Shown here: piece after piece, positions 2,671 to 42,493 of the stretch
Layout: every line of letters starts with the position of its first letter
How positions within the stretch are numbered: the first letter of the stretch is position 1
IMG/VR virus record: IMGVR_UViG_3300045988_146982
Span: 1,038 to 65,037 of that record
Direction: 5' to 3' (one strand)
From: a virus
DNA length: 64,000 nt
Notes under the pieces: generated by a model
Databases searched by the model: none
Told to the model about the DNA's origin: nothing
Seen by the model: only the letters and a program-made list of their open reading frames with translations
Made by a program: the position numbers and the translations under genes

Positions 2671-3183
2671 TTATAAACCTGCAACCAATATGGATGCATA
2701 AGTAGCTGACAACGCGGCTATCTCAATCCAAAACATCGGCTTGGTACGCAGGAAATCCGTTATGATGCTGTCCGATACGTGGCGGGGCATCATCGCCAAC
2801 GTATAAATAATGTAGACAAGCCATACCGTCAGGCACCACGGGCAATTACAGGCAACCCACAGCTGAGAGCCTGCGATACACAAGATAGCCCCGGCGGTAT
2901 GCACCTTCCCTTCAAACTCATCCTTGAAGTTGGGGGCTGCACCAACCATCAGCATACCTATGCAGGACAAGAACGCCAAAAACTCGGTATCCGGTTTACT
3001 CACTTCCAAGATGGCAGGCATCAGCAGCCCGGCGGTAAGCCACGTCGTTACCATAAACCAATGCTTGTGTTCCAACTTATAGAACGTGGCACTGATGGAA
3101 GCAGGAACGCCCCCTTGTTTGACACATACCGCTGCCGTATAAGCAGCTATCACCAACATTGATAAAATCACTAACCAAATCAT
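2671..3183 (-). CDS. Polytopic membrane protein (holin candidate or exclusion protein)
   Basis: The 170-aa product has at least four hydrophobic helices and heads the lysis gene cluster. Confidence 0.45.
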   Translation of the reverse strand: MIWLVILSMLVIAAYTAAVCVKQGGVPASISATFYKLEHKHWFMVTTWLTAGLLMPAILEVSKPDTEFLAFLSCIGMLMVGAAPNFKDEFEGKVHTAGAILCIAGSQLWVACNCPWCLTVWLVYIIYTLAMMPRHVSDSIITDFLRTKPMFWIEIAALSATYASILVAGL

Positions 3184-3195
3184 AACTTTTTATTT

Positions 3196-3846
3196 TTAAA
3201 GATTAAACACTAATTGTTCTGGATAACCCGCTGAATAGTCGAAGAACTTCACTTCCTCTGCTGTTTCCATTTGTTCGACCTGCGCCGCATGTTCGGCAGT
3301 TACATTATAGCATTGCAGGGCATACAGCTCCAACGCTGCAAGCATCTGCAATGCGGTATCTACCGGAATAGTGTACTTCACTCCACCAAACCAAAGGTTG
3401 GTTTCCGGCTTTCCGGCATCTTTTTCTATGCCAATTGAATTGACCAGTCCGACACGGGTTGCTTTGTCCAGCCAAATACGATTACCGGCGAGCATGAACG
3501 AATTGACGGTCTCCGACCGGTCATAAGCAGCGATCTTGTTTAACATGAACTCTTTGAATACAGACGTTTCATTACCGCCTGCAAACCCAAGAGCTTCAAA
3601 TATAGTTTCCAATTCTTGGGTGGTCATTTCCTCATTCAATCCATACCCGTTTATTCGTTTCACAAACTCATCGGCCGTCAGGTGTCCTGTCATTGTTGCC
3701 GTGTATGCTTCGTATCCGCCTTCAACCTCCCGGATACCAAAATTCACAGTGGTGTAGATTTGATCCACCACTTTGTCAACCACCACTACCGATGGCTTCT
3801 CTTCATACTTTTTCTTCTCCATGATTGCGTTAATTTGGTAATACAT
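3196..3846 (-). CDS. Hypothetical protein, tail-fibre-associated by position
   Basis: 216-aa ORF directly downstream of the DGR RT. An alternative start, MEKKKYEE, lies at 3822. Confidence 0.45.
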   Translation of the reverse strand: MYYQINAIMEKKKYEEKPSVVVVDKVVDQIYTTVNFGIREVEGGYEAYTATMTGHLTADEFVKRINGYGLNEEMTTQELETIFEALGFAGGNETSVFKEFMLNKIAAYDRSETVNSFMLAGNRIWLDKATRVGLVNSIGIEKDAGKPETNLWFGGVKYTIPVDTALQMLAALELYALQCYNVTAEHAAQVEQMETAEEVKFFDYSAGYPEQLVFNL

Positions 3847-5269
3847 AATTCAACTCTTTATACATTTTTCTATACCTCTTCCTGATACATACCTTTTCAA
3901 AATGACCTGATATGTAAAAGTATTTATAGAATCTGCTCCCGAAGAGCGATAATACCCATTTCCTGTGGCGGTAGGTCTTAAGCCCTTTGCAGAACCCAAG
4001 ATAGCTATTCAGGACCGATTCGATGCGGGCGCAATCATTGGCGGTCAGCTCGGTTGTTTCAATCATCCGGTTAAAGCCTGTGGCACGTTCCTTGAACCTT
4101 GCCAATGTGCGGTTGCTCAAATAACATCTTCCGGGCTTGATATACACGCCTACGAATAAAACCCCGTGCGACACAGGTTGCAGGTACCGCTTGTCCTTAT
4201 GCAGCTTCAACAGCAATTTCCCGCCAAGAAATGCTTCAAGTTCCGGTATCACCCCCTGCAATGCTTTCAAGTCGTCGCATACCAACAGGAAATCGTCCAC
4301 GAACCTCACATAATGGGAGTTCAACCGCCGTGTCTTCCATATTACATAACTGTCAAAGAAGGACATGAGAAAATTGGCAAACAACTGCGTGGTCAGATTG
4401 CCTATCGGACCGCCTTTGCCCTCCCCGTTGCGAAGCAGGGATTTGTTTTCGGGCAACTGCCTCCACAAGGTCGTATCACCGTTGAACACGCAATCCTTTT
4501 CCGGGCTGTGCAATACAACCGCCCGTATCACCCTTAAAAGGATTTCCTTGTACCCGCCATGGTATTTCCTTTTCGTGAAGCGCAGCAGCATGCCAAGCTG
4601 CAACACCCGGTCTATCGACATGAAGAACGAAACCAAATCGCCCTTGAACACCCATGCAGGTCTGCGGTAGCCGCAGGAAACAGCCTCCATGCCTTGCACA
4701 GCACTTAATACGGCTGTTCTGGTGCCGTAACCCTTACGGCAGTTATGTGACACGTTCCCCTGCGATTCGAACCGCTCTTCAAACAAAGGTTCAAGCCGCA
4801 GGCATATCCAATGGTGCACGATACGGTCACGGAAATTGGCAGCAAACACTTCCCTCAGTTTCGGGTATCTTACAAGAAAACAGGTGGATGTGGACGGTTT
4901 GTATGTGCCTGTCCACATCTCTACAGCCAAACAGACAATGTCTTCTTCGGCTATCTGCATATACTCGACTGCCTGGCAGGAACTCATCTTCCCGCGTAAG
5001 CAGTCCTTATAAGCATCGATAACCGTATCCAGGAAACATTTGAAATCCGTTCCGTATGCTGCCACCGCCCGCGCCCTATTACCGTTGTACTTGTTGTTGT
5101 TGCTAGTGTTGCCACTGGAGAAGTTCACATACCAACTGTTGTTGCGGCTGTTCTCGGTACTGGACCAATACCACGAGGCGGAGACTTCTTGCGTATTTGC
5201 ATCTTCGTTACTATGGCTTGCCACCATAGTAATACGCCCATTCAGAGGATTTCGCCGTACACTATTCAT
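3830..5269 (-). CDS. DGR reverse transcriptase (the ORF as drawn reads through the template repeat)
   Basis: Carries the DGR-RT signature IGNLTTQLFANF (compare Bordetella Brt IGSLTSQLFANV), the catalytic box RFVDDFLLVCDD, and an N-terminal DAYKDCLRGK motif. Adjacent to avd and TR. Confidence 0.9.
   Translation of the reverse strand: MNSVRRNPLNGRITMVASHSNEDANTQEVSASWYWSSTENSRNNSWYVNFSSGNTSNNNKYNGNRARAVAAYGTDFKCFLDTVIDAYKDCLRGKMSSCQAVEYMQIAEEDIVCLAVEMWTGTYKPSTSTCFLVRYPKLREVFAANFRDRIVHHWICLRLEPLFEERFESQGNVSHNCRKGYGTRTAVLSAVQGMEAVSCGYRRPAWVFKGDLVSFFMSIDRVLQLGMLLRFTKRKYHGGYKEILLRVIRAVVLHSPEKDCVFNGDTTLWRQLPENKSLLRNGEGKGGPIGNLTTQLFANFLMSFFDSYVIWKTRRLNSHYVRFVDDFLLVCDDLKALQGVIPELEAFLGGKLLLKLHKDKRYLQPVSHGVLFVGVYIKPGRCYLSNRTLARFKERATGFNRMIETTELTANDCARIESVLNSYLGFCKGLKTYRHRKWVLSLFGSRFYKYFYISGHFEKVCIRKRYRKMYKELNYVLPN
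5056..5183 (-). repeat. DGR template repeat (TR)
   Basis: 128 bp matching VR at 116/128 positions. All 12 differences are at T on the + strand, which is A on the coding strand. Confidence 0.9.
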
Positions 5270-5730
5270 ACCTTCTCAGTATTAAAACCCTGACGGCTTG
5301 TGAAATCGCGCCATGCTGTCAACTGCGCAATCAATTTATCAGATTCGCTGCGGAGTTTGTTGCACCTGTCTTTCGACAAGACACCGACACGCTCCAAAAT
5401 CACAAAATAATTTCGGATAACAAACAGCAAAGACATTGCATTGCTGATGTACCAGCTCCGTTCTTCCCCTCTCGATTCGTTGGCAAGGGCAACCGATTTA
5501 CCGACTTCCGACATATCGGAAATCATCAAATCGGTATACCGGCTCAGTTTTCGAGGGCAAGCCATCATGATTTGCGCTATCGAAAACATCAGGTTGCTTG
5601 CCGCACGAAAGGCAGGAAGCTGGGCGGTCCCCCGTTTCTGTTTCTCTTTCGCGGCGTTGCTTCGGGCAATCTCTTCACCCGTAAGACAAACGCATTTTTG
5701 TTCCTTGTTTTCTGCTGTTTCCTGTTTCAT
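5266..5730 (-). CDS. avd: DGR accessory variability determinant (Avd-like helical protein)
   Basis: 154-aa basic helical ORF between the target gene and TR/RT, the canonical Avd position. Its stop overlaps the RT ORF start (ATGA). Confidence 0.75.
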   Translation of the reverse strand: MKQETAENKEQKCVCLTGEEIARSNAAKEKQKRGTAQLPAFRAASNLMFSIAQIMMACPRKLSRYTDLMISDMSEVGKSVALANESRGEERSWYISNAMSLLFVIRNYFVILERVGVLSKDRCNKLRSESDKLIAQLTAWRDFTSRQGFNTEKV

Positions 5731-5747
5731 ATTATAATCTGCTTCAA

Positions 5748-5771
5748 GGCACGCTCCAAAAGGAGCGCGCC
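5748..5771 (-). promoter_or_regulatory. GC-rich hairpin downstream of VR (DGR target-recognition-type stem-loop)
   Basis: 10-bp stem (5748-5757 with 5762-5771, one mismatch) and a 4-nt loop. It lies about 23 nt 3' of the VR end on the coding strand. Confidence 0.6.
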
Positions 5772-5777
5772 GAAAGG

Positions 5778-8700
5778 TTAAAGTTTAAAAGTGAATGCTG
5801 CCACCGCCCGCGCCCTATTACCGTAGCACTTGCCGTTGCCGCTAGTGTTGCCACTGGAGAAGCCCACATACCAACTGTTGCCGCGGCTGCCCTCGGTACT
5901 GGACCAATACCACGAGGCGGAGTGCAAGGCAAAAGGATTCGCACCGACATTGATATCCCTTACCCGTTTCAGCATGTTTGCGAATAACGGCATCCGCGCT
6001 TCGCTTGACGGGTGTTCATCTGCATAGTCCGCTGTCGGGGCCGTGTTTATCTTGAAGCCACGGCTGCAATTGTGGAAATTGTAGATACGTGCCAATTCAC
6101 CATTTGCCGGAAGATACCAATTGCCGCTGCGGTACTGCTCATGCACCGCTTCGGCTTTCGGCTCGTACAACCGGCACATATATGCTGCCGGATAATAGAA
6201 CTGCCAGTACTTTTTTGCACCGGAATTGGAAGCAGCCAACTCTTTCATCGCCTTGTAAAGCTCTTCCATGGTTTCCGGCAATGGGACGTCCAGATAATTC
6301 AGCAGGATATGGTTGCAGTGCTCAATGATGATGTCCGTTTTCTCCTTCCCGTCAAAGTCATTGACAGAACCTGATGTGAGTACGGCATATCCGTCATCCG
6401 TATCATCATCCAAGTAGTTATCTTCGTTGATGTAGTTGGAAGATGGTTTACCGTTATTTGGGTCGGTCGTTTGAGACAGCCCGGTGCTGTTTATATTCGG
6501 CATTGCGGTATCTGTCGCTGAAGCAATGCCGGCAGCATTCTGGATGGCATCCTCTATTTCCTGTGGAAATCCGTTGGTGGCGGAAGCCTCCGGGTACAAT
6601 CCCCATGGCCAACTTACAACATTCGTATTTTCATCTACCATTATGATATCCTCGGCGGCATCTATACGCAGTTCGTACTCGGTATCGCTCTTCTTTGTTC
6701 GCATAAATACCACGCCGGCGAGTGTCTTGCTAGGGTCATAGGCATCGTCAAATGTGCCGTCCGCGTAGGCGAAGTCCCCGATTTCGGGTATACGGTTGAA
6801 GAACCCGACCTGCTTGGTCTGTTTCATTACCCTGTTGTCCATCGTGGTTACTTCCACCGTCACCGTGAATCTTTCCTTCAATGCCGCATCGCTCAATTTC
6901 TTTACATGAAGCACGCCGTTTACAGGATCGGTAAACCCGGCATAAAGCGAGGCTCCATCTTCGATAGACCAGTTGACCGCAGCATGCCCGTCCACGATTT
7001 TCACGTTGTTGGCACTGGTAGGCAATACGCTGATATGGAATCCGGTGTATTCCCCAAGCGTGAAAATGTAGTTGTTGCCCTGTATGGATATGGAGTTGAT
7101 GGCACGGACGGGATAACTGACATACAGCGGATTATCCGTGCTGTCAATATCCCCGTAGCGTCCTACCAGCTTCATTTTCTCGTCAAACGTGATATACCGG
7201 TCGCCAGATGCGTTCATCAGGGCTATGGACCCTGTCAGGACAGATTGTTTGTCACACAGGAACACAAGCATATCCGCCGTGACGGATTCCCATTCAACGG
7301 ACTTGAACGTCACGCTGCTTAACTCTTCGGTCGCCCCGGTGTACAACTGCGCGGCGAATGCCCGGCTGTTGAACGCCCCGGCACCTTTCTGGTCGACGTA
7401 GACAGTTTGCAGGTTGCCTACGCCTTCGATTCCAGCCGTCTTCAATCCGGGCAGATCATCCAAATGCAGCGCGGTCAACTTGGCGGGCAGCTCCAGGTTC
7501 TCCAGGCTTCCAGTCTTGGGAAGCGTCACGGTGGAAAGGGCGGTTCCCGACACACCAAGGCTTTCGGCACGTGTCAGCTTCGACAGGTCCAGTATACCGG
7601 CTAACGCTTCCACGCCGTTCAGGTTCAGGCGTTTCAGGTTTGGCGTGTTTATCTTAAAGCTGGAAGCGTTGAACTCGACAACCTTTATGCCTTCTTCACG
7701 TCCGGCGGAAAACTCCGTGAGCCGTTTTCCCGACAGGGCAAATTCCCCGGTCAACGGCTTGTCACCCCAATTGCCGATGCTGCTGTAGCAGTCCGGTGCC
7801 AGGAGCGCGCAGGGTGTGTCGTTATCCGTTATAAATGATATGGTATAGTTTTCCCCGGCTTTGACACGCTGCGGAAGTCCGTACGCTTTCCCGTCATTGT
7901 CAGCCCCAAAGCCCAATGACTGCCCGATAGCCACCGCCGGATAAATCCACATGAACGGACGCAGGTTAAAGGTATAAGTCGGCTGTTTGCCATCTTTTGT
8001 GTAGCGGCTGCGGAACGATATGGACTGCGAGCTTGCCACGCTGAAATCGCCATACGAACAGAACGAGGAAAGATACACGGTACGCATCTTCAGGTACTGC
8101 ATCTCACCTTGCAACTGGTCTCCGAGTGATTGCGAGATAGCCGATACGGAGGGTGGATTATACAACCCTTCGTTTGCTTTTTGCTCTGCGTATTCGTAGA
8201 GTAGCCGTGCCGTCTCGTTATAGGCAACAGCCGGAAAATACTTTTGGATGCGGAAATAGAACTTCTCGAAACAGCCCATAGGGGAACCGCCTATTTTCGC
8301 CATTGCCGAAAATATCGCCTTCATGGTGGAGCGCAGCTCGGCAGGGAAAGCGAGTTCCATGAGGTTGTAGAACGTGTTCACTTCACCGTTCCAATAGTTC
8401 TTTCCGTTTGCGTTCAGGTCGTGTTCTTCCACATAATAGGGCTTGTCCTTGCGCCCGAGATTGTCGGTCAGGAAAATGGTATCCATGTCATCCTGGGCAA
8501 AACATATCAGGTGTGTCTTCGGGTCAAGGTATTGGTATGTGTTCTTTGCCCGGTTGTCACTGGCGGCAATCAGCTTCATCACCATCATTGTAAATCTGGC
8601 ATCCGACAGGTTGTAATACTGTCCGATACCGGATTTGAACATTGCCACACGTGCGTTAATAAACATCGCGTTCACCTCCTCCCATATCTGGTTCTGCACG

Positions 8701-11700
8701 GCTTCCGATTCATCGAACCCGGCAAGGTAATCGTTGAGCTGTGTGCGTAAGTTCAATTTCTCATAACTGCCAACACCTGATTTGTTCACCCCGGCATCCA
8801 CCCATGTGGAAGTAAGCCAGTCGTAACGGTACAGGTCGTACTGCTGCGCATCGCCTCCAGCCTTCGTCACCCAATACATCTTGTCTTTTTCAAGGTCTGC
8901 ACCGGCAGCCTGTAGTTCGGCAAGTGTCCCCACAAACGCTTTCAGGCGGTTGGAACATTGATATATGAAGTTATGTGCCGTTTGGAAATAACCAACCTGC
9001 TTTTCATTACCCAAATCAAAATCCCAAGACACAACCCCGTTATACTTCCATCCTTCCAATTCTCCCTCGTCGTCAATGGATGGCTCAACGTCTTCGTTCC
9101 ACGGTACCTGGTGCAGCGTCAGTACGGCACCGTTGTCCGACCCTTCGATCATTAGGTAGTCGGGAAATACTTCTTTGTCATATCCGAATGTCGGCTTGTC
9201 GCCTTTTCCGGGTCCGAACGTTACCAAGCCGTAGAATACAGGTTCAGCCGATTCGTTTTCGCGGACAAACATCATGAACGGAAGTTGCTTGACGCATACA
9301 CGGCATTTTTCATAACCACCCGTTTCCGTGATGGAATTACCACCAACCACTTCTTTCCACAATTCGTGGTACAGGTCGCACGACCCTGCCTTGTGACTCT
9401 GCTGGGAGGAAGCCCAGTTCAGTTTCGCCACCAGCTTGGTGGCAGGCGGCACATCATCCGTCAATTGGTAAGCCGCTCCACGGTCGGTTCCGTTTCCGTC
9501 AATCCAATTATAATCGCCAAAGCCGTACTGGTGGTTCCACAGGAAATATTTCTTTGATGACGAACCCTGTCCTTTCACGCTCATTCCCTTAATCGTACCG
9601 GAGTGGGACGGGTCGCCTACAATATTAATCGTCAGGTCTCCTTTCTTCTTCGCCTGGTCAAGGATATAAGGGAGTGAGCCGGTCCAGAGCATCGTGTTGT
9701 ACTTCTGCGAAGCGCGCTCGTAGTTGATCAGGTTATTATACAATACGTCATTCTTGTCGCGGAACGCAATCTTTTCGCTTACCTCCGTCATACTTGCCAT
9801 ATAATCCTGCCGTATGTCAGTGGCTGAAAGGGCTTTCTTATAGATGCGGATACCGTAGATATCCACATCAGAGGTTTCCGAGCCGATGCGGATACCGTGC
9901 GAGGTGAGCACCCCATTCACGCGCTGGATGAATTTGTCTGTTTCGGTATAGACGAACTCACGGTTGATGATTCCGTTGATGAACAGACGCACGTAACTGA
10001 TACCATGCCCACCGAGGTTATAAATGATATTTACAGCCAGAAGGGTGCGGGTGTCCTCCTGGAACATCACATCCTGGTCGGTGGGCGTACGGTGCCCAGT
10101 GGTCAGGAAGTACGCCTCTTGCGGACGGATTTCCAAGCCCAAGGGCAGTCCGTCGCTTGCGTAGGTGGAGCACATGCGGATAATCGGTTCTGCAAGGTCG
10201 GTCGCGTTGCGGGAAGCGTAGTCAATCTCAATGGTCAGTGAACTCTCCTGGGTCTGTCCGGTGGTTTCGGAATAGCTCTCGTAGTCAATATCCAGCGAGC
10301 ATCCGGCAAGGACGCGCAGGCATTTGGCTCCGGCACTGTCAGTCTGCCATCCGTCCGTCAATAGTTCGAAGCCTTTCCATACGGACGGGACCTCCTCACC
10401 CGTTTCCTGGTTGACAATCCGCATCGGATTCTCCTCGGTGTTGGTGCGCTGTTTGGGGTTCAGCACGAAATCAGCCCCCTTGGTGGGAGAAAAGTTTTCG
10501 CTGTTGTCAATGGTGAAGAGAAGCTGCTGCCGCAGTTCCGTATCGCCGGAATAAAAGAGCATGCGCCCGTTCAGCGTGTCACCTGCGCCTTCTTCCGTTT
10601 CGACTTCGACCATCGCGCTCAGTTCATAGCGTGTGCGGTTGGCTGCCGCCGGAATGTCCTGCGTCAAATAGGCTTCTTGCAGCTTGCCATCCATCAGGCG
10701 AAATTGCACGGGCGTTGTTTCGGCTGATGGATTATAAACCGCCCACTCGAAAAACTTCACCGTATTCCAGTTGGTCAGGTCACGCTGTATGCCGTTCAAC
10801 GCCATCAATATGCCCGTTTCCCCTTCTTCGGCTACCATGATTTGCGAAACCAAATCATCGGTCTGCACTGACGAACCGCTGCTCAGGTAAGCTGTGACGG
10901 TATAGACGCCATGCTTCTTGGGGCTGTCAATCTCCAGAATATAGGGTGTTTCCGTATAGACGTTCGTACCGAGGGCACGGGTAAAGGTCCGGTCGTAGTC
11001 CTTACCGGTAACACGTACCGTAAGGTCTTTGGCAATGTTGCCGGTGACATAGTAAGACAATGGGATACGCTCGCCGTCAAAAGGATTTTCCCATGTGGCG
11101 GCAAAGTCAAGCGCAAGGCTTGTCACCGTGATGGAGTAACTGACGTATGTGGTTGACAGTTCCGTGGTCTCACCGCGGCAGATGATACGGACAGATTGCT
11201 GCCCGAGCGTCAGGTAATCGCCGATAGGGACTTCCACCCAGTCGGATGAATCAGCCGGGTAGGATTCAATCTTCACCGTCCCTTTGGTGCTCCAGTTGCT
11301 TGCGCCTTCCACTTTGGTCTGTATCGTCAGTACGCCCATTTCGCCAGTATCGGTGGTCTGCTGCGTGGCAGGGTTGAATACCTGCGAGGTAAAACGGAGC
11401 TTGACACTCAATTTTCTTGATGTCGTGATGATGGTACGCTCCGAACCGTTCACAAGGTTCAGGATATAGCTGGTTGCCGAACTCGATCCGTCGCCACTTG
11501 GCAAGGCAATATCAAACAGGACGTTCGTTGCGAATGCTTCCGGGTTGCTGTTCCATTCATTATAACGTTCCTCATCGGCAAAGCCGCGAAGGTGGTAGTT
11601 CCCGTCTGTTTCCTTGTCCGTTGTCCGGGACAGATACCCGGCTTTGCTCTTGAACTGCTTTTTGATGAACTCTTCCACACGGGAACCTTTATACATTTCT

Positions 11701-11762
11701 GAAGACGTGCTCCACGGCACTTCTATGCTTTCAATCTCTTTATCCAGTTTTATCTTTGCCAT
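5778..11762 (-). CDS. Giant tail-fibre / receptor-binding protein (1994 aa), the DGR target, with a C-terminal C-type-lectin-fold (DUF1566-like) variable region
   Basis: The C-terminus ...SWYWSSTEGSRGNSWYVGFSSGNTSGNGKCYGNRARAVAAF contains VR. Internal regions look LamG/ConA-like (LFINGIINREF...IRIYKKALS), leucine-rich-repeat-like and Big-like. Confidence 0.85.
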   Translation of the reverse strand: MAKIKLDKEIESIEVPWSTSSEMYKGSRVEEFIKKQFKSKAGYLSRTTDKETDGNYHLRGFADEERYNEWNSNPEAFATNVLFDIALPSGDGSSSATSYILNLVNGSERTIITTSRKLSVKLRFTSQVFNPATQQTTDTGEMGVLTIQTKVEGASNWSTKGTVKIESYPADSSDWVEVPIGDYLTLGQQSVRIICRGETTELSTTYVSYSITVTSLALDFAATWENPFDGERIPLSYYVTGNIAKDLTVRVTGKDYDRTFTRALGTNVYTETPYILEIDSPKKHGVYTVTAYLSSGSSVQTDDLVSQIMVAEEGETGILMALNGIQRDLTNWNTVKFFEWAVYNPSAETTPVQFRLMDGKLQEAYLTQDIPAAANRTRYELSAMVEVETEEGAGDTLNGRMLFYSGDTELRQQLLFTIDNSENFSPTKGADFVLNPKQRTNTEENPMRIVNQETGEEVPSVWKGFELLTDGWQTDSAGAKCLRVLAGCSLDIDYESYSETTGQTQESSLTIEIDYASRNATDLAEPIIRMCSTYASDGLPLGLEIRPQEAYFLTTGHRTPTDQDVMFQEDTRTLLAVNIIYNLGGHGISYVRLFINGIINREFVYTETDKFIQRVNGVLTSHGIRIGSETSDVDIYGIRIYKKALSATDIRQDYMASMTEVSEKIAFRDKNDVLYNNLINYERASQKYNTMLWTGSLPYILDQAKKKGDLTINIVGDPSHSGTIKGMSVKGQGSSSKKYFLWNHQYGFGDYNWIDGNGTDRGAAYQLTDDVPPATKLVAKLNWASSQQSHKAGSCDLYHELWKEVVGGNSITETGGYEKCRVCVKQLPFMMFVRENESAEPVFYGLVTFGPGKGDKPTFGYDKEVFPDYLMIEGSDNGAVLTLHQVPWNEDVEPSIDDEGELEGWKYNGVVSWDFDLGNEKQVGYFQTAHNFIYQCSNRLKAFVGTLAELQAAGADLEKDKMYWVTKAGGDAQQYDLYRYDWLTSTWVDAGVNKSGVGSYEKLNLRTQLNDYLAGFDESEAVQNQIWEEVNAMFINARVAMFKSGIGQYYNLSDARFTMMVMKLIAASDNRAKNTYQYLDPKTHLICFAQDDMDTIFLTDNLGRKDKPYYVEEHDLNANGKNYWNGEVNTFYNLMELAFPAELRSTMKAIFSAMAKIGGSPMGCFEKFYFRIQKYFPAVAYNETARLLYEYAEQKANEGLYNPPSVSAISQSLGDQLQGEMQYLKMRTVYLSSFCSYGDFSVASSQSISFRSRYTKDGKQPTYTFNLRPFMWIYPAVAIGQSLGFGADNDGKAYGLPQRVKAGENYTISFITDNDTPCALLAPDCYSSIGNWGDKPLTGEFALSGKRLTEFSAGREEGIKVVEFNASSFKINTPNLKRLNLNGVEALAGILDLSKLTRAESLGVSGTALSTVTLPKTGSLENLELPAKLTALHLDDLPGLKTAGIEGVGNLQTVYVDQKGAGAFNSRAFAAQLYTGATEELSSVTFKSVEWESVTADMLVFLCDKQSVLTGSIALMNASGDRYITFDEKMKLVGRYGDIDSTDNPLYVSYPVRAINSISIQGNNYIFTLGEYTGFHISVLPTSANNVKIVDGHAAVNWSIEDGASLYAGFTDPVNGVLHVKKLSDAALKERFTVTVEVTTMDNRVMKQTKQVGFFNRIPEIGDFAYADGTFDDAYDPSKTLAGVVFMRTKKSDTEYELRIDAAEDIIMVDENTNVVSWPWGLYPEASATNGFPQEIEDAIQNAAGIASATDTAMPNINSTGLSQTTDPNNGKPSSNYINEDNYLDDDTDDGYAVLTSGSVNDFDGKEKTDIIIEHCNHILLNYLDVPLPETMEELYKAMKELAASNSGAKKYWQFYYPAAYMCRLYEPKAEAVHEQYRSGNWYLPANGELARIYNFHNCSRGFKINTAPTADYADEHPSSEARMPLFANMLKRVRDINVGANPFALHSASWYWSSTEGSRGNSWYVGFSSGNTSGNGKCYGNRARAVAAFTFKL
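5795..5922 (-). repeat. DGR variable repeat (VR)
   Basis: Counterpart of TR. It lies in the last ~45 codons of the 1994-aa ORF. Confidence 0.9.
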
Positions 11763-11775
11763 AATTCACATTGTT

Positions 11776-11955
11776 TTATTTGTTACCGTCCCAATACTCA
11801 TCCCCGTCCCAAGGTTTGTCCCCGTCCCAATATCCGCTGCCGAAGCAGCTTCTTACAGCCATCCAAACAAGCCGTGCCCCTTTGTAGATGGCCGATACCG
11901 CCCGCCGGCCGTAGTAGATGACTAGCACCTCTTTTTCTTTCACCACGATTCCCAT
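11776..11955 (-). CDS. Small ORF (59 aa) with three W-D-G repeats
   Basis: ATG at 11955, 3 nt after the upstream stop. The C-terminus reads YWDGDKPWDGDEYWDGNK. It is below the ORF-track length cutoff. Confidence 0.3.
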   Translation of the reverse strand: MGIVVKEKEVLVIYYGRRAVSAIYKGARLVWMAVRSCFGSGYWDGDKPWDGDEYWDGNK

Positions 11956-11958
11956 ACG

Positions 11959-12309
11959 CTATTCCTCCAATACGTAATACATGGTGTCCGGGTCTATGCG
12001 GTCACCAAGGTTTTCAAACTCGTTTTCTGTCAGCAGGACCGGGACGAAGCCGAACAGCTCCTTTCCCAGCTCGGATGCCGCCTCGGTCTTTTCCTCCGGA
12101 GTCATATCGCCCCATGCGGCAGCGCCTTTTTCAGCCATTATCATCCATGTGGCATCGTCTGTGCCCGGCGTTACGCCTTTGGTCTTGTCCTTGAGACACA
12201 CGTAGGAGCTGCCCAAATGGAACACAAGGTCAAGCCGGTTGTATTCCTCTGGCTCTGCATATCGCCCGCGCGGGATGAAAGTCACCCTTCCCAATATTGT
12301 TTTTGCCAT
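11959..12309 (-). CDS. Hypothetical tail-fibre-module protein
   Basis: 116-aa ORF tightly packed in the same-strand operon. Confidence 0.45.
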   Translation of the reverse strand: MAKTILGRVTFIPRGRYAEPEEYNRLDLVFHLGSSYVCLKDKTKGVTPGTDDATWMIMAEKGAAAWGDMTPEEKTEAASELGKELFGFVPVLLTENEFENLGDRIDPDTMYYVLEE

Positions 12310-12317
12310 ATCGCCTT

Positions 12318-13211
12318 TTATCCGTTAATTGTTAAACATAGTTCACCGTCATCCAACGTGAAAACAGGACCGGTATATTTGTCAGGGGTGGTACAGACGA
12401 GTTCCCCCTTGGCTATGTCGATGTCGAAGGCGGCGAACATTATATCTCCGCGGGCGAAAGTGCCGGTGTCGCGGTATTCGCCGGTTTCTTCATCCCACAC
12501 CCACCAGTTGCCGTTTCCCCCGATCTTCGCCGGGTTGTCGGCGTAGGCTTGTGCGCGATCCGCTTGATTTTGCGCAGCCGCAGCCGCTTCTTCCGCTTTC
12601 TTTGTGGATTCTTTAAATCCTTTCTCGCGGGCAGTTTCCGCTTCGGCACGTTTGTTCTCAAACAATATGCGGTCGTTCTCCTGTCGTTTACGGATGTTTT
12701 CATTACCGATTCGTGCGTTTTCATTGCTGATGCGTGTTTGTTCATTGGACGACACCGTGCGGTCGGTATCCTCCAGCTTCGCGATCATCTCCGCAGCCGG
12801 GCGTTGCAATTCGGCAATCTCTTCGGGAGTAAAATCCTTCAGGTGGGGAATAAGCATGCGCACCTCATCTTCGGTCAGGTCTTCGAAACGGAGCTTGATG
12901 TCGGCTATGTCAACCAAAAGCCGCCATGTGGTGTCGGGGTCGGGAATATACTTGTACTCAATGCCGGTCTCTGTTTTGCGGAATTCCGGCGTCTTGCCCT
13001 CTGCGACTACTCCGGTGCCGATGTCTCCCACCCACCATACGCCATCCCGGATGGAAGGTTTCAGGCTGTCAGACACCGCCGCCTTGAACAGCGCAACCGA
13101 TATACGCCCGTTTACCCCGGAAGACAGGACCAGCAGTATGTTATCATTCCCGCCGACACCGGACACAGGGGTAAAATCCTTTATGTCTATATCATTCATC
13201 CCTTGCGACAT
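12318..13211 (-). CDS. Hypothetical tail-fibre-module protein with a central coiled coil
   Basis: 297-aa ORF with a repetitive N/E/R-rich helical middle segment. Confidence 0.5.
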   Translation of the reverse strand: MSQGMNDIDIKDFTPVSGVGGNDNILLVLSSGVNGRISVALFKAAVSDSLKPSIRDGVWWVGDIGTGVVAEGKTPEFRKTETGIEYKYIPDPDTTWRLLVDIADIKLRFEDLTEDEVRMLIPHLKDFTPEEIAELQRPAAEMIAKLEDTDRTVSSNEQTRISNENARIGNENIRKRQENDRILFENKRAEAETAREKGFKESTKKAEEAAAAAQNQADRAQAYADNPAKIGGNGNWWVWDEETGEYRDTGTFARGDIMFAAFDIDIAKGELVCTTPDKYTGPVFTLDDGELCLTING

Positions 13212-13537
13212 GGCGGTATCTGTTTATGTTTTCCGATATAATCCTTCATGGAATCGGCAAATACTCCGGGGAACAGGTCTATGCTGCTTAATATGGTGTC
13301 CACTTCGGTATCGTCAAGCTCGGTTTCCCCGGTGGAGCGAAATATCTTCTCGGCAAGCACGTGCGCCGATATTCCGGGAATGTTCCTGTAGATGGAATCG
13401 GCATACTCTTCCGCTATGTCCCGCTCCACAACCATGTCCTTGCGTATGTTTGCATACATCGGGAATTTTCTAAAATTTATTTTCATAATCTCTTTCTTAA
13501 ATTGATAAATACATTTCATTCCAATAATATCCGTCAT
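13196..13537 (-). CDS. Hypothetical protein
   Basis: 113-aa ORF with short overlaps to both neighbours. Confidence 0.4.
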   Translation of the reverse strand: MTDIIGMKCIYQFKKEIMKINFRKFPMYANIRKDMVVERDIAEEYADSIYRNIPGISAHVLAEKIFRSTGETELDDTEVDTILSSIDLFPGVFADSMKDYIGKHKQIPPCRKG

Positions 13538-16500
13538 ACATAAAGCCCCGGAAATGGTTGTCCTTGATCGATGTCGAACCGACCGGATTTCTGTTGTTGG
13601 CTTCCCGTATGGAACCGCTCATGGTTATATTCCCGGTATTGGCAGGCTTGATGAATACAATCTTCCCCTTCCACATGGTTGCGGAAGAAGGCAGGCTGAC
13701 AGTAATCGAAGAAGTATTCTTACATACAATCAGATCATCGCTGCTTTTGACAGTATACGAGGATGAAACCTCAATCGCATTAAGTGCCAATCCGTTTATC
13801 CGGACGAACTCTCCGCTTCGTGCAACAATTTCCGCGTTGCCTCTTGACTTCAACGCGTACCCGAAGCCGCCGGCGTTACATAGCAGCTCCAAGGCAATGG
13901 ACAAATTACTGGAACCATAAGTGCTGAAACTTGCCGCCGTCCTGCCATCGGCACGGGCAGCCAAGAATGCGCTGCTTGAAGGGTCGTTCAGCCGGAGGAA
14001 GTTATATCCGCTGATCTCGAATTTAATGGAAGCATTGTTCCCGGATACCGACAAGGAATTATTCGAAATCGTAAACCCGCCGATAGTACCTTTACTCACA
14101 TCAATTGACCCGTTGATTCCATCCAGCGTAAGCGTGCCGCTCTGCGACTGCATCTTCTGGCTCTTGAACATGAACCCGGCAATGTTGGCTCCGTCAATCA
14201 GGGCGGTATCCATCGCCACGAAGCTGAACTTGTTGGACTGTTCCCAATAAGAGGTGTTGGTGGGGGTGGCAGAACCGGAATATCCGTACGGCTTGACAAT
14301 ATAGGCATTGCCGTTATATATCACGATATCGCGGTATTCGCTGTTGTAAACATAAGTCTCGGACGATTTGTATGTGCCGCGGTAGCGCGGCATGGAACCC
14401 GAAGGTCCGCGGTCGCCGGCAGGACCTTGCGGACCCTGTGGTCCGCGGTCCCCATCTTCTCCGTCCGATACTATCTGCGCATAAGCCACACACTCAATGT
14501 TGCTGAACGGTTTTGCCACAATCTTATAATACTTGTACGAAGAGGACACGGAGACCGTGAATGTGGTCGAATAGGAAGAACCGGTGGCATACTGCGACCA
14601 TGATTCGTTATCGTTACTCCGGTATATGTACCATTGGGCGGACTCTGCCGCCTGGGTATTATTACTGTTCTTGTAACAGGTGCAGACAAAAGATGAAGGG
14701 TCCAGTGAGCCTGTTATCTTCTGACCGATGGTCATTTGGGCAGGAGATATGCTATAATAGCAGGCGTCTTCACCGGGTTTGCCATCTTCGCCGTCATGCC
14801 CAGGCTGCCCGGGCTTCCCGTCCTCGCCGTTTGTCAACACGGGAATCGTTTCACGGTCTACAGGTTGTCCGTTGCAATAAAGGGAAAATGTAATGCTTGT
14901 GCCGGCAGACGTTACGGAGAGCGGACTTCCGATGGCGTAGGCAACCTCTTCCCCGTCATCAATCTTACGCATCATGGCATAACCATCCGGCAGGACGGTT
15001 ACACGTACAGGCGCATTCTTCCCGTCCGTCTTGCGGAGCACGCACGTAATGGAAGACACGGAACACGAACCGTCCGAATTCTTTTTGATGGAGCTTTCAG
15101 AAGGGAGCAGGTCGTAAATGACAGCAGGGTCCCCGTCCGTCAGCTTCGTGATGCCGAACTGCACCGGCTTGGAATATTGTTCACCGGCAAACGTGGCGTA
15201 TGCCCGTACCGGGATGGTGATAACCCTGCTGCCGGGCACTGCCGGAATAGCGGTGACGGTAATCACGCCTGTTTCCACATCTTTGGATACACTGACACCC
15301 TCAGACGCTTCCACTTCTATCCTGTCCAATCCAAGCCGGCGCGTGCCATACCACATGCTGACAACAGTCGTGCAGGGCAGTCCGTTCAGCACGTTGCCAT
15401 AGGTGTCGCAATGTACGGCGCACATTTCGTTTGACAGGTCCGCCGATATGATGTTCCATCCGTTTTGGTTGACATTGATGGTATAGGTTTTCAGGAATGA
15501 TGCGTTTCCTTCGCAGTTCACTGTGATGCCGATGCTCATGCCGCCAAGGTCGGTCAGCCCATCCACAATGACAACCCCGTTCTCCACGTGCGCAGTGCAG
15601 CCGACAGGCTCGATTGACACCATGAACGCGCCGGCTTTCAAGGTTTCCGAGTAAACCAGTTCCTTTTCGCCCTTGAAAGCCTGCACGCGGGTGGAAAGGC
15701 GGAAGCCGGTCGCCACCACATTCTCTTCTCCGCCTATTACGTTCCTGCCGCCTGCGGTCACATTCTGCACGGTCTTTGCCCCGTTGATGATATTGCCCTC
15801 TTCGTCCACCGTCACAACACCCTCGTAGCTGGACAGGTTGACGCTGTATGCAGTGAGCTGGTCCACCTGGTCGGGAGTGAACTGGATATGCACGCCGGTC
15901 ATGTAACCGTTCTTCTGGAACGTCCCGTGACCGTGCATCTCCATGCCGCCGATGGTAGTGCCGTCCAGCAGCCCGGACTGGTACATGATATGTTTGTCGG
16001 GGTCAATCTGCCAGGTATCCACTCCCTCCAGGATACGCTTGTAGTAGCGGTTCTCGTAGGTGATGGACTGACGCTCCTTGTCGGTAAAATTGCCGTAGGC
16101 GAAGAAGTTCATCCCGGGCATGGGGTGTACGCCGGTGCCCACTTGCAGGTTGTATTCGAAGCTCATCAGCCCGGCTTTGCTTTCAACAATCCGGGTGGGA
16201 GTAAAATATGAAGTGGCAAAGCCGGAGTATCCCATGAAGCCGTTCTTGTCGAACAGGGTCTGCTCTTCGTTGCTGCCTTCCAAATTGTGGAAGACGCCAC
16301 GACAGATGTCGTTGACGTGCAGCGTTCCCCACTGGTCGTCCAGCAGGTCAAGCGTGGCAATGCGTTTTTCCCTGTCTACGGTCTTAATGGTACCGTAAGC
16401 AAATGTGTTTGCTTTGTCACCGGCTATCACATCAATGCAGTTGAATGTGATTTTGGGAACAATCAGCTCTTCACGGGCAAGAATCCTGTCTATTTCAAGG

Positions 16501-18323
16501 ATTGATTTCCCGTTTTCATCAAGCCACATGGAGGCGCCACGTCCGCCGAGCATGCCGGTAACGAACTTGCCGATACGCAAGCCTTTCATGAAAGTGATAA
16601 TCCCTTGTACGACATCATCCTTTTTCTTACTGATGAACTCAGTGAGCGAGCGCAAAGCCGAGAATGCATTATTGTCGGTAGCCGGTGTGGAATCATTTCT
16701 TTTAATCAGATAAACCCCACTGCCCCAACCGCCTGTATAAGTCTGACCTTTCAGGGTAAGAGATTCTATCTTGCCTTCGAGGTCCCCTATACGCGAGTAG
16801 GCTGCCGTCTCCCCTACTGTATAAATCGGAGAATCATAAGGATAGTCAAGATTAAACTCGTATCCGATAACCCTTGACTGCCTTCCGTTCTCAAAATAAG
16901 CCTTATTGATTAAGTTAACCTTCTGACCGATGCCGTAGAGATTGTGCACTCCGTCCTCACTGTATGCGACATCCGACATCATCTTACAGTTATATGTAGA
17001 AGGGTCTATCTTGGATTTGGCTACAGCTTTCTCCGCTTCGGCTTTCAGCTCTTGTTCGGCGGCACCCACAAGCCCCAGTTCGGTTATTTTCGTACTGTCC
17101 CAACCGGATAGAATATAAGTATCCCCATTCTCAGGAATAAGCACTCCGTCCGGAAGCGGTCTGCCGTAGTTCTCATTTCTGACTATTTCCCAAAGTTGTT
17201 CATTCTTATTGTCAGGGTCGAATGTCACAGCGAATTCCATACCATTCAACTTGCCGGATTGGAAAATGATTTTCAATTCCTCACCGGGAAGGATATAGTC
17301 CTTTGAGAAGGTAATGCCGGTATCCTTGAAGCGGTAGGCATTCCATTTTTCCTCGGTGGTTGTGCCGTCCTCATTCTCCACCTTGTCTGTCACCTCAATA
17401 GTTGTGACATCCGACATGGTGCCGACCCTTCGGGGATAGACTTCATCGAAGATAACCACTTGTTCAATGGCTTCCTCGGTAGTCATATCAGGATAAGCGT
17501 CTATGTACGGAGTTCCGTCGGGCAACATTAAGCGTTTTTGCACAACGCCGTTCAGCACTACAGTCTCATCAACGGGGCGGTAGTCAGATGGGATATTCTT
17601 TGTTGAGCCGAATGCATAGATTCGGGTGGCGTAGGTCGATTGGGAATCGGAACGTGACATCTCTACAACGTTCACCCCGATTTCAAAGTTAACCGCATCG
17701 CCAGACTCACAACGTCCGAAATGGATGATGTTTTCAGTCACCCAACATTCGCAATCCCATTTCTTCGCCATCTCAAAACAGGCGTCAAGGATGTTGATGT
17801 TGTCATAAGTCATCAGTAGCGCCTTATTCTCTACAGTGCTGTCAATGGAGAAAACAAAATCCTGACCTTTATACGCATAACCAAGAGCTTTCAAATTTCT
17901 AAGGACTATACCGGCTTGTACGTCAAGCGGGGCAGTCAGATTCCAGGACGCTTCCTGCCCGGACACTTCGGGGGTATATTTAAAGATTTTGTTTTTCCAT
18001 TTCCAGTAGTGGGCGTCAAGTCTTAATTCGTAATCGTAGCCTGCGTTATCGGTGTTGAATGCGGGCTTCTGCAAGTCGCACACCTCGAACAGCCCGAAGT
18101 CGCACTCCACGTATGAACCAAGTTTGAAATATATAGGATTTTCCAAGGAGAACTTTAACGTGATGTGGTCCTCCTTCATCAGAGTGAACTTACGCTTGCA
18201 GCCTTCATTAACAGGAGTTGTAAGCAGGATAGCACCGGATATGTCTTTGATGTCGATTTGTTCCATGTCTTCAAAGTTCGGAGATAAAAAAAAGAGTGCC
18301 CAATTTTGAGCACTCACATACAC
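13497..18323 (-). CDS. Tail tip / central fibre protein with collagen-like repeats (1608 aa)
   Basis: Lies two genes downstream of the tape measure. Contains G-x-y runs GEDGKPGQPGHDGEDGKPGED and GEDGDRGPQGPQGPAGDRGPSG. The track start is GTG; the first ATG (MEQIDIK) is at 18263. Confidence 0.6.
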   Translation of the reverse strand: MYVSAQNWALFFLSPNFEDMEQIDIKDISGAILLTTPVNEGCKRKFTLMKEDHITLKFSLENPIYFKLGSYVECDFGLFEVCDLQKPAFNTDNAGYDYELRLDAHYWKWKNKIFKYTPEVSGQEASWNLTAPLDVQAGIVLRNLKALGYAYKGQDFVFSIDSTVENKALLMTYDNINILDACFEMAKKWDCECWVTENIIHFGRCESGDAVNFEIGVNVVEMSRSDSQSTYATRIYAFGSTKNIPSDYRPVDETVVLNGVVQKRLMLPDGTPYIDAYPDMTTEEAIEQVVIFDEVYPRRVGTMSDVTTIEVTDKVENEDGTTTEEKWNAYRFKDTGITFSKDYILPGEELKIIFQSGKLNGMEFAVTFDPDNKNEQLWEIVRNENYGRPLPDGVLIPENGDTYILSGWDSTKITELGLVGAAEQELKAEAEKAVAKSKIDPSTYNCKMMSDVAYSEDGVHNLYGIGQKVNLINKAYFENGRQSRVIGYEFNLDYPYDSPIYTVGETAAYSRIGDLEGKIESLTLKGQTYTGGWGSGVYLIKRNDSTPATDNNAFSALRSLTEFISKKKDDVVQGIITFMKGLRIGKFVTGMLGGRGASMWLDENGKSILEIDRILAREELIVPKITFNCIDVIAGDKANTFAYGTIKTVDREKRIATLDLLDDQWGTLHVNDICRGVFHNLEGSNEEQTLFDKNGFMGYSGFATSYFTPTRIVESKAGLMSFEYNLQVGTGVHPMPGMNFFAYGNFTDKERQSITYENRYYKRILEGVDTWQIDPDKHIMYQSGLLDGTTIGGMEMHGHGTFQKNGYMTGVHIQFTPDQVDQLTAYSVNLSSYEGVVTVDEEGNIINGAKTVQNVTAGGRNVIGGEENVVATGFRLSTRVQAFKGEKELVYSETLKAGAFMVSIEPVGCTAHVENGVVIVDGLTDLGGMSIGITVNCEGNASFLKTYTINVNQNGWNIISADLSNEMCAVHCDTYGNVLNGLPCTTVVSMWYGTRRLGLDRIEVEASEGVSVSKDVETGVITVTAIPAVPGSRVITIPVRAYATFAGEQYSKPVQFGITKLTDGDPAVIYDLLPSESSIKKNSDGSCSVSSITCVLRKTDGKNAPVRVTVLPDGYAMMRKIDDGEEVAYAIGSPLSVTSAGTSITFSLYCNGQPVDRETIPVLTNGEDGKPGQPGHDGEDGKPGEDACYYSISPAQMTIGQKITGSLDPSSFVCTCYKNSNNTQAAESAQWYIYRSNDNESWSQYATGSSYSTTFTVSVSSSYKYYKIVAKPFSNIECVAYAQIVSDGEDGDRGPQGPQGPAGDRGPSGSMPRYRGTYKSSETYVYNSEYRDIVIYNGNAYIVKPYGYSGSATPTNTSYWEQSNKFSFVAMDTALIDGANIAGFMFKSQKMQSQSGTLTLDGINGSIDVSKGTIGGFTISNNSLSVSGNNASIKFEISGYNFLRLNDPSSSAFLAARADGRTAASFSTYGSSNLSIALELLCNAGGFGYALKSRGNAEIVARSGEFVRINGLALNAIEVSSSYTVKSSDDLIVCKNTSSITVSLPSSATMWKGKIVFIKPANTGNITMSGSIREANNRNPVGSTSIKDNHFRGFMYDGYYWNEMYLSI

Positions 18324-18346: not shown

Positions 18347-18763
18347 TTAGGTTCTGTTTGCCGGATTCGGTTCGTTGAACTTGGCTGAAATTTTTCCAAA
18401 AGTTAGGTCTAAACTCTGTGCGTAAGTGATACTTTTGCCGAGATAAATCAGATGATAAATCTCGCTACTATTAGCCGGGACTTGAATATCAACCTTGCCT
18501 TTATAAAGCTCATCGAAGAAAGCTTTTTTCTTTGATTGATAATCGGACCGAGAACTACCCTCGATAGCAAACGAAAGAGTTATTTCCCTTTCATCGACTT
18601 TAGGATTATTGATTATCACACGTTTTCCATGTTCCAACCGGGACTTATTTTCTATAAATTCTTTCATGGGTGATGATGCTCCAAGTACATCAAGAAAGCC
18701 CTCTCCCATTCTTACCCCCCATGTTGTGTAGGCGTCTTGGGTATTTATCAATAAATCTGACAT
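18347..18763 (-). CDS. Hypothetical tail protein (distal-tail position)
   Basis: 138-aa ORF immediately after the tape measure gene. Confidence 0.4.
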   Translation of the reverse strand: MSDLLINTQDAYTTWGVRMGEGFLDVLGASSPMKEFIENKSRLEHGKRVIINNPKVDEREITLSFAIEGSSRSDYQSKKKAFFDELYKGKVDIQVPANSSEIYHLIYLGKSITYAQSLDLTFGKISAKFNEPNPANRT

Positions 18764-42389: not shown

Positions 42390-42421
42390 AATCGTGTCAA
42401 ATTTAAATTAATACTCAATAG

Positions 42422-42493
42422 TTGCGGGGGGCTGAATCGAACAACCGACCTTCACCAAGTCAAAGTGAAAAGCTACCACTGCTACACCCCGCG
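42422..42493 (-). tRNA. Phage tRNA with an initiator-type acceptor stem (C1xA72) but anticodon GAC
   Basis: Hand-folded 72-nt cloverleaf: CGCGGGG TG TAGC AGTGGTA GCTT T TCACT TTGACTT GGTGA AGGTC GGTTG TTCGATT CAGCC CCCCGCA A. Confidence 0.7.

Follow-up and report, generated by a model that had tools for sequence, protein, structure and literature searches.

A 64,000-nucleotide stretch of viral DNA (positions 1,038 to 65,037 of IMG/VR virus record IMGVR_UViG_3300045988_146982; hereafter the window, with coordinates counted from its first letter) carries a diversity-generating retroelement (DGR) on its minus strand. We put the probability at about 93% that this is a functional DGR of a temperate, siphovirus-like Bacteroidaceae phage, whose near relatives are prophages in Phocaeicola massiliensis. 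A preliminary description of the window, made by reading its letters, had proposed a complete DGR, and this was borne out by the reverse transcriptase (RT), the accessory variability determinant (Avd), the template and variable repeats (TR and VR), the predicted folds and the comparison with related loci. Read along the minus strand, the target gene, which encodes the variable protein of 1994 amino acids and carries the VR at its 3' end (5778-11762), is followed by a GC-rich hairpin, avd (5266-5730, 154 amino acids), the TR and the RT open reading frame (ORF; 3830-5269, 479 amino acids counted from an ATG that shares bases with the stop codon of avd in the sequence ATGA, 5266-5269). The order proposed earlier was the same. 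The TR does not occupy a non-coding spacer: it lies in frame within the 5' part of the RT ORF.

The repeat pair is central to this assignment. Between positions 3000 and 13000, a repeat finder and MAFFT returned a single pair of direct repeats, the TR at 5056-5183 and the VR at 5795-5922 (both read on the minus strand), which are 128 nucleotides long, align without gaps and are 91% identical. On the coding (minus) strand the identity runs from CTCCGCCTCG... to ...GGTGGCAGCAT, and the flanks on either side are unrelated. On the coding strand, each of the 12 mismatches falls on an A of the TR, with 11 A>G changes and one A>T; with 36 A in the 128 nucleotides of the TR, the probability of this arising by chance is approximately 2.4e-7. 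The position, size, number of differences and their restriction to TR adenines were thereby reproduced exactly as first reported, and computational alignment left the differences adenine-confined. In the reading frame of the target, the TR adenines are distributed over codon positions 1:2:3 as 19:15:2, and ten codons are of the AAY type. The VR codes for residues 1947-1990 of the target, and the peptides previously given for both repeats match our translations exactly. The two copies share the GC-rich 3' end GGGCGCGGGCGGTGGCAGC (5797-5815 in the VR and 5058-5076 in the TR, minus strand), whose identity had also been pointed out before, and they part ways 2 nucleotides beyond it. By analogy with the initiation of mutagenic homing (IMH) element of phage BPP-1, we infer an IMH-like role for this end. 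No further TR copy, second VR or remote target was found when the TR was compared by BLAST with the whole 64-kb window.

The RT passes the Pfam RVT_1 model (PF00078) with 34.7 bits and matches phrog_1423, annotated 'reverse transcriptase', at 6.7e-64, so that the profile search suggested in the preliminary description gave a positive outcome for this protein. In a PDB search its closest solved relative was the Bordetella DGR RT, bRT (8ub7_A, E-value 1.3e-24), with group II intron RT far behind. Its catalytic motifs GDLVSFFMSID, PIGNLTTQLFAN and FVDD are intact and are kept across relatives. The second of these is the DGR-type IGxxxSQ motif with T replacing S, and IGxxx(S/T)Q is typical of DGR RTs. 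Motif C (4300-4330, minus strand) reads FVDD (RFVDDFLLV) throughout the clade, as compared to YMDD in bRT. By its sequence, the RT can be assigned to the DGR lineage with its motifs undisturbed.

On its predicted fold and its family profile, the 154-amino-acid ORF between the target and the RT is a remote Avd, because the profile of 12 orthologues matches the four-helix-bundle structure 2gsc over its full length (E-value 0.0024) and because the model folds like bAvd. Three of the 12 family members also match Pfam bAvd weakly. The AF2 model of the protein (predicted local distance difference test score, pLDDT, of 79) is a helical bundle with fold matches to 2gsc, 2rld, the bAvd chains of 8ub7, and 4dwl, with target-normalised TM-scores of 0.79-0.89 and root-mean-square deviations of 1.2-2.1 Å. 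The earlier suggestion of a profile search for Avd was thus rewarded at the level of the family and the fold. The bundle is preceded by an N-terminal extension of about 40 amino acids, rich in Lys and Glu (5614-5730, minus strand), which is absent from bAvd. Some gene callers assign later starts to this ORF and report versions of 99-112 amino acids.

A scan of IMG/VR with the RT as query yielded 28 loci with 41-99% RT identity (L001-L028); phage BS-TP1 and five contigs of metagenome-assembled genomes (MAGs) were added to these. The same cassette is present in all 28 viral loci, and in each of them, in BS-TP1 and in the five MAG contigs, the mismatches between VR and TR lie almost exclusively on TR adenines. 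Within the window and L001-L010, TRs are nearly identical inside each sub-clade and VRs vary at 25 of the 36 TR-adenine positions, with only 4 non-adenine mismatches in the 11 loci. Far from being invariant, the VR differs even between phages whose RTs are 94-99% identical, and it does so almost only at TR adenines, while their TRs are nearly constant. Compared with the window, L001-L006 show 11-17 mismatches per 128 nucleotides in the VR and 1-5 in the TR; the rest of the 7.9-kb cassette diverges by 0.6-1.3% in L001-L005 and by 4.9% in L006. In addition, non-adenine substitutions in the TRs of L007-L010 recur in their own VRs. Changes in the template that are mirrored in this way show a flow of information between the repeats and are the signature of repeated copying from template to target. 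This comparison of assembled relatives argues for ongoing mutagenic retrohoming.

That the DGR acts on a DUF1566/C-type-lectin-like tip of a very large tail-module protein is supported by several lines of evidence. The tip comprises the C-terminal 343 amino acids of the target (5781-6809, minus strand) and ends in β-strands encoded by the VR. Five homologues of the target contain PF07603 (Lcl_C/DUF1566). The AF2 model of these last 343 residues has a pLDDT of 94, and in Foldseek searches it matched 4eps, a Bacteroides ovatus fimbrial protein, with an E-value of 8e-6, and the C-terminal domain of Legionella Lcl (8q4e), the latter locally, over 41 residues only, with an E-value of 0.035. The Lcl domain has been described as C-type-lectin-like (PMC11162425). 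Among the proteins of BFVD, the model matches viral proteins annotated DUF1566, one of them with 100% identity that extends across the hypervariable tip. Among DGR targets, those with DUF1566-type VRs form a recognised class (PMC5758913). The homologues and the structural model are thus in keeping with the predicted C-type-lectin-like end.

The GC-rich hairpin GGCGCGCTCC-TTTT-GGAGCGTGCC (5748-5771, minus strand) begins 23 nucleotides past the VR, in the 47 nucleotides that separate the stop codon of the target (5778) from the start codon of avd (5730). It was found where the preliminary description had placed it, as a 10-bp stem with a 4-nucleotide loop, and one pair of the stem is G.T. An equivalent GC-rich stem of 8-12 bp, mostly with a 4-nucleotide loop, follows shortly after the VR in all 29 loci (the window and L001-L028), and the stem sequences are unrelated between lineages. 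The hairpins or cruciforms of BPP-1 and other phages have a GC stem of 7-10 bp and a 4-nucleotide GRNA loop, and lie 4-34 bp from the VR (PMC3240598); the window hairpin agrees with them in stem length, GC content, loop size and distance from the VR, and differs in the sequence of its loop. On the sense strand the loops are pyrimidine-rich in the window (5758-5761, minus strand) and L001-L028 (TTTT, TCTT, TCCA, CCAA and TTTG) and do not conform to GRNA. We considered whether the hairpin might merely terminate transcription of the target gene. It has no T tract and the terminator scan called no intrinsic terminator there, though it may still act in a terminator-like way.

Certain observations weigh against the reading of this element as an active DGR that varies a lectin-like tip of a tail protein. 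The tip itself scores 23-26 bits against Pfam Lcl_C/DUF1566, under the gathering score of 34.9, and Mtd and TvpA are absent from the Foldseek matches of its model. No tail-fibre or receptor-binding protein family was matched by the target in PHROG, Pfam and PDB searches, and the single Avd sequence has no match in Pfam, PHROGs and NCBIfam. The TTTT loop of the hairpin departs from the GRNA consensus, and in BPP-1 a CTTT loop abolished homing (PMC3240598). Between relatives that are 99% identical, patches outside the VR (around 8200-8400, 6800-7000 and 4800-5000) are similarly dense in mismatches, with 11-21 per 200 nucleotides. These patches are not adenine-specific and are probably recombination mosaics; with a similar density elsewhere, it is therefore adenine specificity, and not density, that sets the VR apart. 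Finally, activity is deduced here from differences between assembled relatives, and could be past rather than current.

This last point leads to the possibility of a fossil DGR, which once diversified the VR and is now inactive, so that the VR differences among relatives would be old inherited alleles. The comparison of assembled consensus sequences would allow for it, and L002 and L003 do have identical VRs. We nevertheless regard a fossil as very unlikely, given that every ORF and catalytic motif is intact and that phages with 99% RT identity and an overall divergence of 0.6-0.9% have VRs that differ from that of the window at 11-13 of 128 positions, almost all of them TR adenines; co-variation of TR and VR at non-adenine sites, moreover, requires that homing recurred while the clade diverged. 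Still less credence, indeed hardly any, can be given to the proposal that the repeats are an ordinary duplication or gene-conversion tract beside an unrelated RT of the retron or group II intron type. It would draw on the weak matches of the RT to the NCBIfam models for group II intron RT, Drt and retrons, all of which are far under their cut-offs (54.7 versus 300 bits). The closest solved relative of the protein is a DGR enzyme, the IGxxx(S/T)Q motif is present and Avd adjoins it, and mismatches are adenine-exclusive in 29 or more loci. It is this adenine-specific pattern, which survives realignment, that refutes a non-DGR origin.

The function of the target protein deserves separate consideration. 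As a whole it matches phrog_24896 (2e-129) and phrog_14959, both families of unknown function, and a phmmer search of the entire protein against the PDB gave nothing meaningful. The preliminary description had envisaged LamG-like, Big-like and leucine-rich-repeat (LRR)-like domains. A Pfam search at E<=1 with the target cut into five overlapping pieces recovered no domain of the LamG, Big or LRR type, just sub-threshold noise; the first two thus have no Pfam support, while for the third it can be said that homologues carry LRR_5 and that the target itself does not have a Pfam LRR. Nor is the protein unusually large, as had been thought, since the targets of other Bacteroidaceae phage DGRs are comparable (2225 amino acids in Hankyphage, 2187 in BS-TP1 gp27, and those of 'domain group 3').

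A feature that the preliminary description had missed is a putative CotH-kinase-like core at about residues 1026-1116 (8415-8687, minus strand), with a clade-invariant DNxxKN...DDxDT signature. The homologue P0046, with 38% identity across the central region, scores above the threshold of the Pfam CotH model (PF08757) at this invariant stretch, with 24.4 bits against 23.8. Of nine clade members, one matched Pfam CotH, with an E-value of 0.025. The target itself has no direct Pfam or PDB match for CotH; the profile of the central region had no match in the PDB, and HMMER did not reach 5JDA/CotH. Intact residues of a catalytic appearance (DNxxKN...DDxDT) would be unusual in a tail fibre.

To judge by its gene position, and by that alone, a distal tail protein or a receptor-binding protein is the most likely identity of the target. 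The earlier label 'tail-fibre-like' likewise stands by position in the tail module, and not by homology. The alternative is that the DGR is real and its target is a virion-associated multi-domain protein with another role, for example a CotH-like kinase or other enzyme that is delivered to the host surface or acts there, or a mucus or glycan adhesin, in which the lectin tip would serve for targeting only. We consider this improbable, though appreciably less so than a fossil element. The invariant signature of the central domain and the homologue that passes the CotH threshold speak for it, as do the want of any matched tail-fibre family and the publication of 'domain group 3' by its domains, without a function. 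On the other side, the gene comes directly after those for the tape-measure protein, a tail protein and a 1608-amino-acid fibre-like protein, and the lysis genes follow it. Most DGR targets of viruses are tail proteins (PMC8144416), and the authors of the BS-TP1 study call the homologues 'potential phage tail-related proteins' (PMC12694917).

If the element works in the manner of BPP-1, on which the following steps are modelled, the RT-Avd complex would bind the avd-RT transcript that contains the TR, and the RT would copy the TR into cDNA, misincorporating opposite template adenines. The cDNA would then replace the VR at the 3' end of the 1994-amino-acid target gene, with homing guided by the common GC-rich 3' end and aided by the hairpin 23 nucleotides downstream. 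Adenines at positions 1 and 2 of the ten AAY codons, together with those of about a dozen further codons, would randomise approximately 20 residues on the surface of the tip. This would allow up to about 1e20 variants, and no stop codons would arise at AAY. In this way the element may vary the recognition of a host or ligand through the tip of the target.

The position of the TR within the RT reading frame was a further subject of our analysis. In the window, the RT frame is open from the ATG at the avd stop codon, across the entire TR and into the RT core, which begins only 5 codons past the TR, at FKCFLDTVIDAYKDCLRGK, aligned with the N-terminus of bRT. The frame is open through the TR in all 28 viral loci, BS-TP1 and the five MAG contigs (L001-L034), down to 39% RT identity. 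Over 12 lineage representatives, the spacer between avd and the TR contains no stop codon in the RT frame in about 434 codons in total, as against 7.6 stops per 100 codons in the other two frames; if the lineages are taken as independent, the probability of such openness by chance would be roughly 1e-15. Nei-Gojobori-type ratios of the dN/dS (nonsynonymous to synonymous) kind for the spacer were 0.67, 0.55 and 0.80 in the three frames, values that are confounded by gaps that are not codon-aware and by the overlap with the 3' end of avd, so that we claim no protein-level purifying selection on the spacer. An RT start at a GTG within the 3' end of the TR (RAVAA) is a possible alternative, which would leave the open avd-TR spacer of every lineage unexplained.

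Upstream of the TR, the leader in the RT frame contains the motif NPLNGRIT (AAT CCT CTG AAT GGG CGT ATT ACT; 5228-5251, minus strand). Its core, AATGGGCGN...ACT, is kept down to 41% RT identity; the motif, as NPLNGR(I/F)T, lies 41-112 nucleotides upstream of the TR in all lineages. Synonymous variation is seen at Pro (CCT/CCC/CCG), Leu (CTG/TTA/CTA) and Arg (CGT/CGA/CGG/CGC), and the motif could be either a peptide motif or an RNA element. It also resembles AATAGGGCG, with which the GC-rich 3' end of the TR begins. Translation through the leader and the TR would give the peptides MNSVRRNPLNGR... and, encoded by the TR, SASWYWSSTENSR...

We offer as a tentative proposal, which we ourselves think rather doubtful, that throughout the clade translation of the RT begins at a start codon located at the avd stop codon and runs through its own TR, and that this is functional rather than mere compaction. 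Were it true, the RT would bear at its N-terminus an invariant copy of the target's VR peptide in unmutated form, with the NPLNGR-T leader ahead of it, and the 5' coding part of its mRNA would serve as the template RNA. Translation of the RT would then be coupled in cis to the use of the template, or ribosome traffic would gate cDNA synthesis. DGR descriptions usually state that the TR is untranslated. The architecture as such is not new, because DiGReF already lists TRs that overlap annotated RT ORFs as its 'group 3' (PMC3521204).

The prototype of such elements is the mtd-avd-TR-brt cassette of BPP-1. It shares with the window the order of target/VR, hairpin, avd, TR and RT, the adenine-specific differences between TR and VR, the GC-rich repeat ends, and a tail-module gene whose 3' end contains the VR and codes for a tip of the C-type-lectin type. 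A GC-rich hairpin with a 4-nucleotide loop follows the VR in both, the Avd fold is that of 4dwl, and the BPP-1 enzyme (8ub7) is the closest solved relative of the RT. The two differ in the place of the TR, which in BPP-1 is the non-coding avd-brt spacer; with the TR inside the RT ORF, any spacer RNA after the TR must therefore overlap RT coding sequence in the window. They also differ in the loop (GAAA/GRNA in BPP-1, TTTT here), in motif C (YMDD and FVDD, respectively), in the N-terminal extension of about 40 amino acids on the Avd of the window, and in the target, which here has 1994 amino acids and a DUF1566-type tip, with Mtd not among the fold matches.

A second known system is that of the Bacteroides phage BS-TP1 (PQ571274), in which gp27 (target), gp26 (four-helix bundle), gp25 (RT) and gp24 (DUF4376) are arranged in identical synteny. 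Its RT is 48% identical to that of the window, its target is homologous over the full length with 32% identity (2187 versus 1994 amino acids), its downstream gene is 41% identical to the DUF4376-like gene of the window, and its TR also lies inside the annotated RT ORF. The Avd proteins of the two are too diverged for a BLASTP alignment. BS-TP1 is a different phage, with a genome of 111 kb and isolated on B. salyersiae, whereas the window phage is temperate, has relatives in Phocaeicola massiliensis and has exact copies of its proteins on contigs no longer than about 65 kb. Multi-domain, probably tail-related DGR targets of about 2000 amino acids have been reported for Bacteroidaceae temperate phages (PMC12694917). 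Bacteroides DGR variable proteins of 'domain group 3' have been described as exceeding 2000 amino acids, with a CotH-kinase-like motif, carbohydrate-binding motifs and LRRs (Macadangdang et al., bioRxiv 10.1101/2024.11.15.621889). The target of the window resembles them in its DNxxKN...DDxDT core and through homologues that carry Pfam CotH and LRR_5; its putative membership is by transitive homology, as the protein itself has no significant Pfam match to CotH or LRR.

Hankyphage of Bacteroides dorei is likewise temperate, has its VR at residues 2188-2225, the C-terminal end of a very large ORF with a C-type-lectin domain, and contains a small Avd-like ORF adjoining the RT (PMC6199706). It is a Mu-like transposable phage, in contrast to the window phage with its SPP1-type portal, Terminase_3, CI-like repressor and DnaD-like replication module. 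Overlap of the VR with a domain of the DUF1566/Lcl_C type, as seen here, is also a feature of the Legionella DGR with its target LdtA and of DUF1566 targets ('CLec2', category d; Wu et al. 2018, PMC5758913); LdtA is a cellular surface lipoprotein, while the domain of the window caps a phage tail-module protein.

The element belongs to an already described family of gut-phage DGRs, and what is known of DGRs is unchanged by it. Its main value is as a clean example of a widespread gut prophage DGR, in which natural variants show adenine-specific turnover of the VR, and it would make a good model for DGR-driven change of host range in Bacteroidaceae phages. Possible additions, all of them clade-wide, are the TR in the RT frame, the leader motif, the pyrimidine-rich loop, FVDD and the N-terminal extension of Avd. 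They hint that, in the commonest DGRs of gut phages, the RNA and protein contacts known from BPP-1 have a different arrangement.

GenBank lists identical RT, Avd and target proteins under Siphoviridae sp. ctkcl3 (DAD75137.1, DAD75147.1 and DAD75148.1, the last named 'DUF1566'). The sequence is therefore already public, though not annotated as a DGR. Relatives with at least 90% identity are encoded in genomes of Phocaeicola massiliensis, some on contigs as long as 1.38 Mb. Of the exact proteins, Avd is found on 992 contigs and the target on 6, and the 90% cluster of the target has 369 members. A megablast search of the 7.9-kb cassette against the phage collection gave no match, and Rfam found nothing within the cassette. 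Elsewhere, the window codes for an SPP1-type portal, the large terminase subunit (Terminase_3), a major head protein, a CI-like repressor, an anti-repressor, a helicase, a DnaD-like loader and a C5 methylase. The portal, terminase, head, CI-like repressor and replication genes therefore identify it as DNA of a temperate tailed phage.

Upstream of the DGR target lie the genes for the tape-measure protein (18767-22759), a tail protein (18347-18763) and a collagen-repeat, fibre-like tail protein of 1608 amino acids with tail-fibre PHROG matches (13497-18323, minus strand). The last of these is a second candidate for a fibre or receptor-binding protein. After the target in gene order comes the gene for a GH108 endolysin (1639-2157). 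A gene for 216 amino acids (3196-3846, minus strand) overlaps the RT stop codon by 17 nucleotides; its product has 41% identity to BS-TP1 gp24 (DUF4376) and no Pfam or PHROG match of its own. Judged by its synteny with BS-TP1 it is the fourth conserved member of the module, possibly one of the tail genes and not part of the DGR.

The G+C content is 48-54% in 4001-18000, which holds the DGR and the distal tail genes, and 32-44% elsewhere in the phage, which suggests that the tail-fibre/DGR module was acquired from a different background. The Rfam DUF2693-FD RNA motif was detected at 59494-59542 (minus strand), near the CI-like repressor region, with 75 bits against a gathering score of 44.5, and the phage contains a tRNA-Val (GAC) gene at 42421-42493 (minus strand).

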